Source of the DNA: Spirochaetia bacterium
Lineage (GTDB): Bacteria; Spirochaetota; Spirochaetia; WTKD01; G963693115
DNA length: 64,000 nucleotides
NCBI GenBank assembly: GCA_965226065.1
Contig: OZ245332.1
Coordinates: 1,690,774-1,754,773 of the forward strand
Direction: 5' to 3'
A program made the position numbers. Each line of letters begins with the position of its first letter. Within the stretch, counting starts at the first letter, position 1. Below are positions 34,801 through 64,000 of the stretch, in pieces.

Positions 34801-37800
34801 TATCAGAGAATGGCCGTAGTGAGTGAAGATGAAGGATTTTGGATACGAGATATGTTAGCGTGGCATTATACAAAAAAATCACAAGTTAAAGCATTTGCAG
34901 TTGACTATCATATAGAAAAAAAGAAAATATCAATAGAAGAAAAAAAAAGATTGAAGAAAAAAATAAATGGTAGAAAAATACCAATGTTACGCCCAGCATT
35001 TGAGCCTATGATGCTGGCACAAAAACCTATAGAAGATACTTTTGTAGATAATTTTGATAAATGGGGAGTAGGACTAATTGATGTTAATGTGAAAATAGAT
35101 GGGCTTTTTCCATCTAATGTAATGAAAGTAGAAAAGCCTGAAAATGAAGAAAGTAACGAACACCCTACACAGAAACCGGTATTTTTACTAGAACATATAA
35201 TCAAAATGTTTACTCAAGAAGGACAAACAGTATTAGACCCATTTCTAGGTAGCGGGACAACCGCAATAGCGAGCTATAGAAATAATAGAAAAATTATAGG
35301 GTATGAATTAGAATTGAAATACATGAACATTGCCCGTAATAGATTACATAAGGAGATGATAAAAAATGAATAACATCAATACCACACAAGCACAAAATGC
35401 ACAATCCATGTTAGAAAATTGTATCATACAACTTCTTATAGAATACTATAAAGAACACAGGACTACAGCTGGAGCAACTCCAGCTCAAATATCAAAGACA
35501 CTAGGTATATTTCGAGGAACTAATTTAATAGAGGGAGGAATGAAAATGAATGATGCTATAGTAACAGGACTATTGCAAAATCTCATAATAAAAAAACAAG
35601 TCCAAAAAATAGAGGGTTCTCATGGTCAATATAGATTGACTGATTTATGTGCTAATTCTTTTAATTTGGTATAGGTGAGTAAAATACATAATTCCCTTAT
35701 TCTTTACGGAATCGTATAAAAGATTTTCGTAGTTTTTTATTTTTTGATAAACCTATGGATACAAAAACATTGCCTCATGCTCTAGAAGCAGAGCAATCTC
35801 TTTTAGGCGCTATACTCAACCAACCTGATGTAGTTACTCGTTTGGATATGCTACCACAGCCAAACGATTTTTTTCTTGAACGTAATAAGCTTATATTTGA
35901 AGCAATTTATAAACTCTCAGACCATGGAAGTATCATAGATCTTGTTTCTATTACAGAGTCTCTACAGCAATCTAAGGCACTTGAGAAGGCAGGAGGACCT
36001 GCGTATCTTGCAGAGCTTACTAGCCGTGGGATGTTTTCAGATAATATTGATTATTATTCCAAAATTATTATAGAAAAAAGTCAACGAAGACTTCTGATAA
36101 AGAATTCGCATACGATGCTTGATGCGTCATATGATGAAAGCAATGAAATAAATTATTTACTAGAAAAAAGTGAACAAGATATATTTTCAATTACTGATAG
36201 GACGAAGACAGCCGTCTATTTTTTGTTTCAGCATTTTTACGAAGAATTTGTAAATTTTATACACAACAACGAAAGAAAAATAGGCGAATATTCGGGCATC
36301 CCTACAGGCTTTGGACACCTTGATCAAATGCTTACCGGATTACAGCAAGGCGAGCTTATTGTTATTGGAGCACGACCATCGGTTGGAAAGACGGCATTTG
36401 CACTTAACATTGTGCATAATATAGCCATAGAGCAAAAAGTGCCCGCTGCATTTTTCTCACTCGAGATGTCGGGGCGCGATATTATTTCTCGTATTGTCTG
36501 TATGCGCAGTGGCATACAAGGAAATAAAATACGCCAAAATATGCTCAGCACTCAAGATTTACGGCATATATCGCAAAGTGTTGGGCAGATTGCAGAAGCA
36601 CCGCTTTATATTTCAGATGTTACCTCTATGCGATTGTTTGATTTGCGTGTTCAATCACGCCGACTTGTGATGAGGGAAAATGTGAAAGTATTATTTATAG
36701 ACTATTTAGGGCTTATACGCTCAAATGATAATATGCCGAAAAATATATCTCGTTTTGAACAATTTTCAGAAATTTCTCGTTCCTTGAAAGAACTTGCACG
36801 TGAATTGCATGTGCCTATTGTCGTGTTATCACAGTTAAACCGAGACGCTGAGGATAAAGAGCCTACTCTTGCAAATATTCGAGAATCAGGGGCGATAGAA
36901 CAAGATGCGGACGTGGTACTCTTTTTGCATCGAAAGTCTCGAGAAGAAGATAATACGACACTTATTATTGCAAAGCAGCGTAACGGACCTGTCGGTAAAG
37001 TAAATTTTATTTTCTCACCTGATAAAATGAAATTTCAAGAAATTGCCCGTTCGTGAGAAGTCCTGTAGTAAAATTTGCAGCTATTGTGAAATTGCCTCTG
37101 TAATTCACATATCACATAATAGAGTTAAGAGAATTTCGTATGTGAAATATACTATTATTTTTTCTTTTTTTCTTTAGCATATTCTATATATTCCGAAACT
37201 TATATAGTGTGAGGAATATAGTATGATTTTCAATAGTACGAATTTAGGAAAATCTCTTGATATTGCACATCGTCAGTTAAGTGCTTTATCGTATCGTGCG
37301 AATGTTACTTCAAATAATATAAGCAATCGAGATACCCCGAATTTTAGGCGTTCAACCGTGCATTTTGAATCGAGACTTCAAGAAGCCTTACAATCAGAAA
37401 AACATAAACCAGAAATACGCGCTGCGAAGACACATAAAGCGCACATGAATTTTTTTGACCCCATTGATTACAAAACAGTGTTACCAAAACGCATACTAGA
37501 TTGGCAGACGCAGGCAGATAATAACGGGAATAATATTGATTTAGAAATGGAAAGAACAAATATGCTCAAATTAGAAAATCATTATAAATTGATAATGAAA
37601 AGTATGGCTACGAGTTATAGAACATTTGAAATAGTTTTAGGATAGGCGGTGATTGAATATGGGATTATTTAGCGGTGTCAATACAGCATCGACGGGCTTA
37701 AGTGCGCAGCGTCTGAGAATGGATGTTATTGCAAACAATGTTGCAAATGTAAAAACGACTCGTACTTCAGAAGGTGGACCATTTCGGCGTAGTCGTGTTA

Positions 37801-61800: not shown

Positions 61801-64000
61801 AGATAGATCGTGTTGCAACCATGCTTCACGAACGTAATGAGTGTGAGCCTACTATTGAAGAAATTTTAGATGTCACAGGGCTTACAAGAAAACAGTATGA
61901 CAAAGCAATGGCTTGCATTAGTCACGCATACACGGTGTCATTACACGATGTACTTTTTACGAATAGCGATGGAGAGCAAATAACATATTTTGACCAAGTA
62001 GGAACTTTGCCCGAAGACGCTCCTGAAAAGGCTTTTGCACAAAAAGATCTTGTGCGTGTCTTGCAAAAAGCTTTAGGCGAATTACCAGAACGTGAGTTGC
62101 AAGTGCTTATTTTATATCATTATGAAGAATTAACGTTAAAAGAAATAGGAAAAGTACTCAAAGTGACAGAGTCTCGTGTTTCACAATTACATGGGCGAGC
62201 ACTTGCGAAACTTCGCACAAAGTTGTTTAGTTATCGTAAAGGCGTTTTTGAAAAATAATTACTATGTTGTGTTTTTATGGCAAAATTTGAAAATTTTAAA
62301 TTCACCCTTTCTAGTACCATACAAAAAAGCCCATCACAAAATGTATATCGTATAAAGGCAAAAACGATTGAAGAAATTTATAAAAAAGCTGTAAATTATT
62401 TTAATATTCCTCTTGAATTTATACGTTTTGAAATAGAAAAAGCAGAAAAAGTACGAAAGAAATCTTTGTTTCAATTTAATGAATATGTAGTACTCGCGTA
62501 TCCTTCTAGTGAGTATTTTTCACAAGAACATCATGTTGAAGATTTAGAGCAAAAAAATGGTGCAGTTTTTGTACGAAAAGGCAATGGCGCTATTTATATT
62601 ATGGTAATGCCACCGGGTGAAAGAGGGAAGGCAATTTCTTTACCAAAGGTATTAAAAGCAATGTCTAATAAAGTTTCTCTGGATATTTTAGATTCTGTTA
62701 ATCGTACTGCGGTTAAAAATGCTACGCTTAAAGCAAAAGGTACATGGGTAAGAGTTGGGAGCTTTCATCATAATGAAGCAGATGATGTCACCTATCGTGT
62801 TCGTATTAGTAACGATAACATGAAAGCATTTATTCAAATAAGACCCGCTCTTAACAATGGAGCAGATCCTATGCAGAATCACATGCGTCGTGAATTAGAA
62901 GATGCAGGTGTTTTATATGGAATACTGACTGAAAAACTTGCAGAATTAGAGAGACTTCCTGTCTATAATCAATGGATTGAAGTTGCAAGTGGTAAATTTC
63001 CTGTTCATGAACAAGATGGAAAGATACTTCTTGTTAATAGTCGCGAACAAAAATACTCAAATACTGTGGATATCACAGAGGCGAGTCCTATGCATACGGT
63101 TCGTGCGGGAGATATTATTGCGATTAAACAATCTATTATTCCCGGAAAAGACGGCTTATCAGTATTGAATGAAGTAATTTTTGCTAATACGGCTGAAGAA
63201 GTCGAGTTTATTGAGAATGAATATATAGATATTTCGGAAGACGGGAAAAAAGCCATAGCTACAAAAGACGGTGCAGTATCTATAAAGAACAATGTTATTA
63301 CTATTGAGGAACTTTTGGTTATTCCCGGTGATTTGTCACCAAAAACGGGAAATATAGATTTTCCTGGTTCTGTAATTATAAAAGGCGATATACCCGATGA
63401 TTACGAAGTGTATGTAGGCGGTAATTTAGAAGTTCATGGAAGTGTAGCGAATTCGCGATTGCGTGTTGGCAAAAATCTCATTGTACAAAGAGGTATTAAT
63501 GGAAAAAATGAAGCAAATATACATATTAAAGGATCTTTGCTTACGCGCTTTTTAGAAAGCGTGACTGTAAGAGTAGAAGGAGATTGCATTGTTCAAGATG
63601 GTGTTTTACATTCTCATATTTTATGCGATAGACGTGTAATAGCTATTACCGGTCGCGGACGTATCGTAAGCAGCGAGATAAATTCATCAGAGCTTATACA
63701 GGTGCGTACGATAGGTTCTACACTTGGAGGCAATTCAGTATTAAATATTATCTGCTTGTTTGATGATCGTAAAAAACTTGGAGATGTTACTACATTAATA
63801 AAAGAACGAGAAGAAAAATTAAAAGAAATTAAGCTGTGGCTTGGAAAGATGACAAATACAGACGCTCTTAAAAAATCTGATAGACATCACAAGGGTACTG
63901 TGCTCGCGAAAGTAAAAGAAGCAAAAAAATTTCATATGGAATTGATACAGTTAAAAAATATTGCAAGCAAGCTTAAAGAGCGCTTTCACGGGATTAAAAC

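Follow-up and report, generated by a model that had tools for sequence, protein, structure and literature searches.

A family of Spirochaetia represented by six genomes (f1: G000, G093, G068, G136, G151 and G152) has kept the genes of its flagellum, while cheA, cheW, cheY and the chemoreceptor genes were deleted. With a probability of about 70%, we read this as a case of unsteered, CheY-free motors in which the gene still occupying the former che locus, ORF X, encodes a non-catalytic binding protein with a CheX fold. The window analyzed is a stretch of 64,000 nucleotides from G000, a genome assembled as one contig of 1,849,772 bp. Three genomes of a sister family in the same order (f2) were used for comparison; the kinship of f1 and f2 is that of their taxonomy labels, as a FliM tree did not join the two.

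As judged by Pfam and NCBIfam models, positions 37223–64000 of the window hold an intact spirochaete-type flagellar cluster running from flgB to fapA (Table 1). The 76-aa ORF in this cluster was presumptively named flbD from its position. Elsewhere in G000 lie flgK/flgL/fliW, fliD, two flaB and three flaA-family genes; FlaA sheath and FlaB core flagellins are thus both encoded, and the collar is represented by FlbB. A second, diverged fliG was located outside the window (contig 766561–767571) and is present in all six f1 genomes. FliM showed a dN/dS of 0.04 between G000 and G093. On this gene content G000 encodes a spirochaete periplasmic flagellum, with the genes for basal body, export gate, hook, stator and filament intact, and the full cluster, motor, FlaA and FlaB reported in an earlier note on this DNA were all recovered. 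An Rfam scan of the window gave no RNA family match.

Table 1. Flagellar genes in the window of G000 (window positions unless stated otherwise)
Feature	Position	Strand	Basis
flgF, flgG, short flgJ	2095..4099	+	
flgB, flgC, fliE (rod, rod junction)	37223..38499	+	Pfam Flg_bb_rod, Flg_bbr_C, FliE
fliF (MS ring), fliG (FliG2, torque rotor)	38568..41363	+	Pfam; TIGR00207 386 bits, above cut-off
fliH, fliI, fliJ (export ATPase complex)	41379..44065	+	Pfam; FliJ match weak, E 0.0018
flbB (collar protein, periplasmic flagella)	44053..44667	+	NCBIfam NF047368 158 bits, cut-off 110
fliK, flgD, flgE (hook)	44669..48074	+	Pfam
76-aa ORF, flbD position	48100..48330	+	translation; no NCBIfam match
motA, motB, fliL (stator)	48327..50432	+	Pfam, NCBIfam; MotB plug aspartate present
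fliM	50522..51577	+	
fliY/fliN	51577..52710	+	no CheC-domain Pfam match; N-terminal peptide drifted
fliO/fliZ, fliP, fliQ, fliR, flhB, flhA (export gate)	52756..58837	+	Pfam
flhF, flhG, 175-aa membrane ORF without family, fliA (sigma-28)	58834..62258	+	
fapA	62277..64000, continues beyond the window to contig 1754969	+	open frame; Pfam FapA on 3' part

The chemosensory core was taken to comprise chemoreceptor, CheA, CheW and CheY, as in excerpts of PMC10746217. A full-length CheA query, the separate search that the earlier note had named as a gap, found CheA in none of the six f1 genomes and in all three of f2, while an eight-sequence CheA profile run against G000 returned ordinary kinases only. 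By the Pfam model, CheW was absent from G000, G093, G068, G136 and G152 (0/5) and present throughout f2 (3/3); for G151 its absence is read only from the CheA query and synteny, and on that basis CheW is missing family-wide, as claimed (0/6). Stand-alone CheY was likewise found in f2 only (3/3 against 0/6), all receivers in the six f1 genomes being in frames of at least 229 aa, with four receiver domains left in G000. Chemoreceptors above the cut-off were missing from f1, as had been claimed (0/6, with a best E of 0.31 in G000, against 1/3 in f2).

CheB was found in none of five genomes tested (G000, G152 and the three of f2). CheR gave no true match in the nine f1 and f2 genomes, although the statement that none exceeded the cut-off has to be amended, as the G093 match (1/9) passed it by summing neighboring matches. 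We take the CheR-model matches in G093 and G068 to resemble CmoA-type methyltransferases beside CmoB. When G000 was cut into 39,034 six-frame segments and searched with relaxed profiles, no che fragment was detected; the only matches were its three ordinary sensor kinases and three receivers of multidomain type. A degenerate orphan receiver (contig about 1766.6 kb) was rejected as a CheY stand-in: it is multidomain, with an orthologue in the che-less f11 and in f43.

Synteny gives the ancestral gene order as flaA-cheA-cheW-cheX-cheY-tRNA-Val. The distance from the flaA stop to tRNA-Val is 542–753 bp in all six f1 genomes, compared with 3639 bp in G115 and 4871 bp in G121. Because this interval has shrunk, the che block is concluded to have been deleted in f1. 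The earlier claim of a family-wide loss of chemotaxis with the flagellum kept is strengthened by this synteny and by independent assemblies, the core genes being gone in 6/6.

The sister family had been described as keeping only remnants of chemotaxis. Instead, all three f2 genomes carry normal-sized open frames for cheA, cheX and cheY, in intact cheA-cheX-cheY operons without CheB or CheR. The family keeps an intact, adaptation-free chemotaxis core. Both families lack CheB, CheR and nearly all receptors, whereas CheA, CheW and CheY are missing in f1 only. This gene pattern fits the stepwise decay proposed earlier; on our reading, the first step would have been the loss of CheB, CheR and most receptors in the order's common ancestor. 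Nevertheless, two families supply a single branch point, the order of events is itself a deduction, and a quick FliM tree, run with long-branch warnings, did not resolve f1, f2 and f11.

ORF X is the single gene left between flaA and tRNA-Val in all six f1 genomes. Its frame is open (151–189 aa) in these and in five further database relatives, and the orthologues are 11–54% identical to the G000 copy. ORF X has no Pfam or NCBIfam match at cut-off, hhalign against CheX gave probabilities of 1.4% and 1.0%, an eight-sequence CheX profile returned E values of at least 24 for all six copies, and no PDB sequence matched below E 0.3. Modeled from 10 family rows, none of them a CheX, the G151 orthologue reached a pLDDT of 78 and matched Borrelia CheX (3HZH) with Z 13.2 (rmsd 3.5 over 141 residues), as against Z of at most 4.1 for unrelated folds. 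All Foldseek rows listed for this model at E ≤ 0.001 were CheX/CheC-like. An AF2 model of the G000 copy (six rows, G000 first) had a pLDDT of 41 and no fold match; the CheX fold predicted for ORF X is carried over to G000 from the G151 orthologue, which is 22% identical. In the ESM Atlas the nearest named clusters were CheX/CheC at 0.81–0.86, below the 0.9 mark and of use as a lead only.

ORF X resembles CheX (3HZH, 1XKO, 3HM4; PF13690) in its predicted fold, its length of about 155–175 aa and its position between flaA and tRNA-Val. It differs in that identity is 8–12%, Pfam gives no match, the catalytic helix lacks E-x-x-N, and the genome has no CheY to serve as substrate. The earlier statement that there are no che genes was not confirmed, in view of this cryptic gene with a predicted CheX fold at the old che locus in 6/6 and of a second, recognizable CheX in G151. 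The CheX fold is common to the middle domains of FliM and FliY.

ORF X could be a functionless relic awaiting deletion, and its very fast divergence, its low GC content (in G000, 0.26 for the gene and 0.37 for the genome on average) and the loss of the catalytic motif would suit that view. This is unlikely, however, as the frame has stayed open in six genomes and five relatives, while the neighboring che genes have vanished completely. Its dN/dS values of 0.19 and 0.31 for two pairs are similar to those of flaA (0.14 and 0.35), with one pair near saturation (dS 1.66) and the other comprising only 8 synonymous and 9 non-synonymous changes. ORF X has probably been kept for a non-catalytic binding role.

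The N-terminal CheY-docking peptide of FliM departs from the class consensus at 5 of 10 positions in G000. Three to five changes were counted in all five f1 genomes read, compared with 0–2 in 21/21 CheW-positive outgroups, whose FliMs were mostly top-scoring matches, and 1–3 in the other che-less family. As a whole, FliM of f1 lies on a long branch, and the drift may in part reflect general acceleration. The motors are likely to be permanently in the CheY-free state. The gene set suggests that the flagella rotate, and by analogy with Borrelia cheA2 and cheY3 mutants, described in parts of PMC10703414 and bioRxiv 10.1101/2020.05.18.101634 as running constantly, f1 cells would run constantly with their poles opposite in rotation. 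According to excerpts of the latter preprint, spirochaetes can run only if their two poles rotate in opposite senses; why this asymmetry persists when CheY3 is missing is described as mysterious, and FliG1 and c-di-GMP enzymes are the candidates named. Retention of the second FliG (6/6) together with the absence of GGDEF and PilZ domains (0/3 f1 genomes tested) favors FliG1, provided that the cells swim; the retained second FliG might then set the polar asymmetry.

In its ancestral operon (cheA2-cheW3-cheX-cheY3 in Borrelia burgdorferi) and in its motor parts, among them two FliG genes and the FlbB collar, f1 is like B. burgdorferi, and it amounts to a naturally occurring cheA cheW cheY deletion. 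Borrelia, in contrast, keeps the full pathway, the receptors and c-di-GMP signaling.

The flagella might instead have their main use in cell shape, as an internal skeleton, or in host contact, and contribute little to swimming, steering having become useless. The spiral shape of Borrelia depends mainly on its flagella, as stated in portions of bioRxiv 10.1101/2025.07.04.663154, the f1 genomes are small (1.7–2.6 Mb), and swimming is a prediction from gene content. We consider this distinctly unlikely: the stator, FliL and collar genes are intact, as are both copies of fliG, FliM is under strong purifying selection, and a filament used only for shape would presumably need no stator. Non-spiral, non-motile members of the same class treated in those portions likewise lost motility-related genes, but what they lost was the flagellum itself, while f1 lost steering only.

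It is improbable that ORF X has stayed active as a phosphatase and now serves another receiver (PhoB-, OmpR- or NtrC-type, or the orphan), despite the predicted fold, an Asn conserved on the long helix in 9/10 sequences one position from the catalytic Asn column, and the receiver domains left in G000. Excerpts of PMC12887009 give the family consensus as D/S-X3-E-X2-N-X21-P. ORF X does not carry this active site: E-x-x-N was found on the long helix in none of 10 sequences. The low identity of the orthologues to the G000 copy also speaks against this reading. A bolder proposal, which we hold to be a long shot, is that CheX, having lost its substrate CheY, was kept through the history of the family as a pseudo-phosphatase and took up a new task at the flagellar switch that does not depend on CheY; there the CheX-fold protein and FliG1 could together make the two poles rotate in opposite senses. 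If true, spirochaete CheX would have a second function, and this would point to the unidentified C-ring density in CheY-free Borrelia motors. A predicted complex of ORF X with the FliM/FliY middle domains scored 0.01 and points neither way.

The three class III adenylate cyclases noted earlier in G000 are real, one with dCache, one with MASE10 and HAMP, and one with HAMP; that they are the only Cache/HAMP-type sensors left is a supposition of the earlier note. Such membrane cyclases could be imagined to replace the chemoreceptors and to steer the motor through cAMP, as the sensor parts, the presence of cNMP-binding proteins and the lack of GGDEF and PilZ might suggest. Nevertheless, this hint of a takeover of sensing is very improbable: there is no expansion relative to the CheA-bearing f2 (2–7 cyclases per f1 genome against 4–6; 5 cNMP-binding domains against 6), and no flagellar gene was recognized by eye beside the cyclase or cNMP genes of G000.

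That the che genes are missing merely through incomplete metagenome assembly is scarcely credible and, for the main operon, already largely refuted: marker completeness in f1 is just 85–93% and a contig break hides fliM in G136, but 3/6 genomes are single contigs, the GC skew of G000 switches cleanly twice, continuous sequence bridges the deletion in 6/6, and the tRNA-Val/ORF X/flaA junction is also crossed by contigs from two runs of a separate study, in which all indels fall outside the genes.

Loss of chemotaxis with the flagellum kept is not unique to the order of f1. The same loss was found in a second Spirochaetia family (3/3) and in one further genome, drawn from FliM-positive, CheW-negative genomes outside f1. 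Dropped before counting were G060 (350 contigs, 81% complete), four f43 genomes with divergent FliM, one of which was tested and lacked FlaA, and four g20 genomes with FliM E values of 1e-7 to 1e-11. Of the eight f43 and g20 genomes, six had been called CheW-negative by elimination. No report of a che-less flagellated spirochaete was found in a literature search outside which most subscription papers and all supplements lay, and "chemota" is absent from the main text of a phylum-wide spirochaete preprint and of a sponge-spirochaete paper.

Che-less flagella are already known from Aquifex aeolicus and some actinobacteria (14 of 69 flagellated ones); the passages of PMC10746217 that report them describe flagella without a chemosensory pathway as very rare and the control of direction as open. 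The f1 family shares with those bacteria a complete flagellar set and the lack of chemoreceptor, CheA, CheW and CheY, but its flagellum is periplasmic, with two polar bundles that must turn oppositely, and the loss is family-wide, with a mappable deletion and a CheX-fold relic.

The case of ORF X illustrates that absence calls based on Pfam can miss an old gene, and the retained, predicted CheX-fold protein suggests a role of CheX beyond CheY dephosphorylation. The second che-less family and the recent loss in a single genome open the needs of a steering-free motor to comparison by gene content. The f1 family itself provides a long-running natural knock-out for spirochaete motors without a steering signal.

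The source genome (G000), in which the window occupies 1,690,774–1,754,773, is one contig of 1,849,772 bp with 37% GC, and its GC skew has two switch points, at about 350 kb and about 1,290 kb, the pattern of a whole chromosome. It was compared with the five other genomes of its family f1 (G093, G151, G068, G136, G152; three of the six single contigs, completeness 85–93%) and with three genomes of the sister family f2 (G115, G004, G042; completeness 96%), giving nine genomes of the order. By FliM, the nearest relatives with a title belong to uncultured 'Spirochaetia bacterium' genomes. 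The complete flagellar cluster described in the earlier note was confirmed, with all genes present as open frames. Elsewhere, G000 carries flgK, flgL, fliW, fliD, a pair of flaB genes, three genes of the flaA family and a second fliG. Cluster DNA was matched in 5/5 other f1 genomes; the lack of a FliM match in G136 is explained by a contig break that falls there. Flagellin and the second FliG were found in all nine genomes; this FliG has diverged further in f1, with two of its six copies there scoring below the Pfam cut-off. Just upstream of the flagellar operon, between rplI and dnaB, lies a low-GC insertion (window 32726–35674) with an IS1595-family transposase, an N6/N4 DNA methylase and two unassigned ORFs. 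Three tandem near-identical ORFs of 412–433 aa precede the flgK operon (G000 contig 270,076–275,351).

Coordinates of flagellar, chemotaxis-related and cyclase features
Feature	Location	Strand	Remark
Flagellar cluster, in order	window 37223-64000		rod/MS ring/export part flgB, flgC, fliE, fliF, fliG, fliH, fliI, fliJ; then flbB, fliK, flgD, flgE, ORF at flbD position, motA, motB, fliL; then fliM, fliY, fliO, fliP, fliQ, fliR, flhB, flhA; last flhF, flhG, ORF without assigned family, fliA, fapA
flgF, flgG, flgJ	window 2095-4099		
Main flaA	G000 contig 424,930-426,012	-	
ORF X	G000 contig 424,269-424,793	-	174 aa
tRNA-Val(GAC)	G000 contig 424,104-424,177	-	
Second fliG	G000 contig 766,561-767,571	+	
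Class III cyclase	G000 contig 1,512,032-1,514,275	+	
Class III cyclase	G000 contig 1,079,690-1,081,171	+	
Class III cyclase	G000 contig 516,775-518,460	+	
Fast-evolving CheA-CheX-CheY core of f2	L085:6466-9998, L086:2354-5870, L087:6243-9668		
Loci of family f11 and genome G065	L136-L139, L183-L186		

CheA, which had not been searched separately before, was absent from all six f1 genomes, as were stand-alone CheY and any MCP over cut-off. CheW was missing from the five f1 genomes searched with the Pfam model and CheB from the five tested; CheW occurs in 118 of 151 genomes of an even class sample. CheR searches gave weak matches only, and those at the two loci read look like CmoA-type methyltransferases. 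G000 was also searched as 39,034 six-frame segments, under relaxed filters, using profiles made from the CheA, CheW and CheY proteins of relatives and from a pair of degenerate MCPs; this recovered only the three sensor kinases of ordinary type and three receivers with several domains, with no che match. Among receivers, f1 has NtrC-type and OmpR/PhoB-type proteins and one degenerate orphan. The orphan, a receiver plus helical protein before a bactofilin-like gene (L090:12569-13369; G000 contig about 1,766.6–1,767.4 kb), occurs widely across Spirochaetia, and its active-site residues are intact in f2. It has lost its acidic pocket in f1 (G000, G152) and therefore looks like a pseudo-receiver. 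Two receiver/OmpR-type regulators on a 3.4 kb contig of G151 (C28; L023/L035) are unlike any in other f1 genomes and are possibly binning contamination.

The gene order in G115 of f2 is amidase–GerMN–flaA–cheA–cheW–cheX–cheY–tRNA-Val(GAC). The same amidase–GerMN–flaA–che–tRNA-Val(GAC) block is found in G121, and the che operons of G036 and G005 end at the same tRNA. In all six f1 genomes only one ORF (ORF X) stands between flaA and tRNA-Val(GAC), and the tRNA lies 542–753 bp past the flaA stop; the corresponding distance is 3,639 bp for G115, and for G121 it is 4,871 bp. From this synteny the che block was deleted in f1, and the family-wide loss of CheA, CheW, CheY and chemoreceptors is borne out by the inventory, that of the operon genes by synteny as well. 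In G093, repeated phage-tail-like gene pairs stand directly behind the tRNA that closed the che operon (L093:69-8454), which suggests an integration site; in G151, G068, G136 and G152 the nusA–infB cluster lies at or near the point just past the tRNA. In genus g2, an inserted block with IS fragments parts flaA from amidase–GerMN (G068 L095:10966-15187; G136 L096:10556-16931), and the flaA–ORF X–tRNA-Val unit stays together.

The earlier statement that no che genes remain has to be amended, as one gene of likely che origin, ORF X, survives at the old locus in 6/6 f1 genomes. Its identity across f1 is 11–54%. Database searches added five relatives from beyond the six genomes (P0006, P0007, P0010–P0012), none with a Pfam family, and sequence methods gave no link to CheX. 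The structure model of the G000 copy was unusable. The G151 copy, modeled from ten family rows without any CheX row, reached pLDDT 78, and Foldseek with this model gave 12 matches at E<=0.001, every one listed CheX or CheC-like. In VIA-align the top match was Borrelia CheX (Z 13.2, rmsd 3.5, 141 residues, 8% identity), followed by other CheX, FliM, CheC and FliY, and no unrelated fold exceeded Z 4.1; the ESM Atlas also pointed weakly toward CheX. Because modeled fold, size and position agree, ORF X likely descends from cheX.

For the CheC/CheX/FliY family, the active site is given as D/S-X3-E-X2-N-X21-P in PMC12887009. E-x-x-N was found on the long helix in none of ten ORF X sequences. In the MAFFT register, Tyr or Thr occupies the catalytic Asn column; shifted by one, Asn is kept in 9/10 and Glu in 0/10. 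The dN/dS was 0.19 for G000/G093 (dS 1.66) and 0.31 for G068/G136 (17 changes), similar to flaA. Lacking E-x-x-N and having low dN/dS, ORF X looks like a pseudo-phosphatase under selection whose substrate is gone. With such ratios, a dead relic is unlikely, and with the motif missing, an active phosphatase acting on another receiver is distinctly improbable. In Vibrio, CheX is reported to be modulated by another protein (PMC12799141), so it is plausible that ORF X has a binding surface outside its active site. G151 has a second, Pfam-recognisable CheX with E-x-x-N intact (L151:10563-11036, minus strand; contig C22 about 98.6–99.0 kb). It adjoins isoprenoid genes away from the flaA locus, in a genome without CheY or CheA, and was found in none of the five other f1 genomes.

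Rather than the remnants claimed previously, f2 has a reduced, adaptation-free core: open frames are present in 3/3 for cheA (with Hpt, ATPase and CheW domains), for cheX and for cheY. G115 has a separate cheW, whereas G042 and G004 have CheW as a fusion within CheA. Degenerate receptors number one in G115, over cut-off, and one in G042, with E 1.4e-4; G004 gave none, and neither CheB nor CheR was found in f2. CheA identity was only 25–33% in the two f2 pairs compared against 52–54% in two outgroup-family pairs. Stepwise decay stands as the simplest reading, with adaptation and receptors lost early and the core later in f1, but it is drawn from one branch point. This minimal system merits separate study.

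CheY-P is bound by a peptide at the N-terminus of FliM (PMC7693769). This peptide reads LSQDEIDQLL in 17 of 21 CheW-positive outgroups, with one or two differences in the other four. Five f1 genomes showed 5, 5, 5, 3 and 3 differences, a drift to be read with the long f1 branch, the mostly top-scoring outgroup matches and the smaller drift of the other che-less family (f11, below) in mind. FliM is strongly conserved overall (dN/dS 0.04).

Chemotaxis loss is not unique to f1. In family f11 (G010, G047, G073; two single contigs), canonical FliM and FlaA were found in 3/3 and FliD in 2/2 tested, and no CheW, MCP, CheX or stand-alone CheY was found. Its FliM peptide has only 1–3 differences, and unrelated genes follow flaA, with no ORF X seen there. 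G065 has canonical flagella and no CheW, MCP, CheX or CheY, while its congeners keep CheW; with five contigs, a gap is possible. Independence of these losses is taken from taxonomy labels, not from a FliM tree. Groups with divergent FliM were set aside from this count: L144 and L145 (genus g20) and L142 (family f43) carry, close to fliP, a shortened FliM-like gene and lack CheW, the one f43 genome tested gave no FlaA, and these loci are possibly stripped export gates.

Steering of the motor by cAMP is very unlikely. The three class III cyclases of G000 noted earlier are real, but f2, with CheA kept, has 4–6 against 2–7 in f1, so their proposed replacement of chemosensing is not supported, and nothing ties cAMP to the motor. 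Five cNMP-binding domains in f1 compare with six in f2 (five genomes tested); GGDEF and PilZ were not found in the three f1 genomes tested. That the missing che genes are an assembly artefact is scarcely credible, since two runs of a separate study yielded contigs (X4, 66.7 kb; X6, 9.3 kb) that span the flaA/ORF X/tRNA-Val junction with few substitutions and intergenic indels only, so an assembly gap does not explain loss of the main operon; run X1 may stem from the source sample, and run X9 does not cover the locus.

Borrelia cheA2 mutants run constantly with no reversals, according to PMC10703414. In bioRxiv 10.1101/2020.05.18.101634, cheY3 mutants are described whose two poles still rotate in opposite senses and whose motors show a C-ring density of unassigned identity, with FliG1 a candidate. 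By analogy, f1 cells would likely run unsteered; a purely skeletal role for these flagella is rather improbable. Unsteered running could be sufficient in a confined host niche, a setting suggested by the small genomes. Complete flagella without a chemosensory system, as in f1, are called very rare in PMC10746217, which names Aquifex aeolicus and 14/69 flagellated actinobacteria; Brucella reviews also match this phrase. A literature search (main texts, few subscription papers) returned no report of a spirochaete with flagella and without chemotaxis. The che-less flagellum of f1 is real, apparently new for spirochaetes and of a kind already known from other bacteria. What is new is the mapped deletion with a cryptic survivor of predicted CheX fold, and the family bears directly on an unsettled question of how spirochaetes move.
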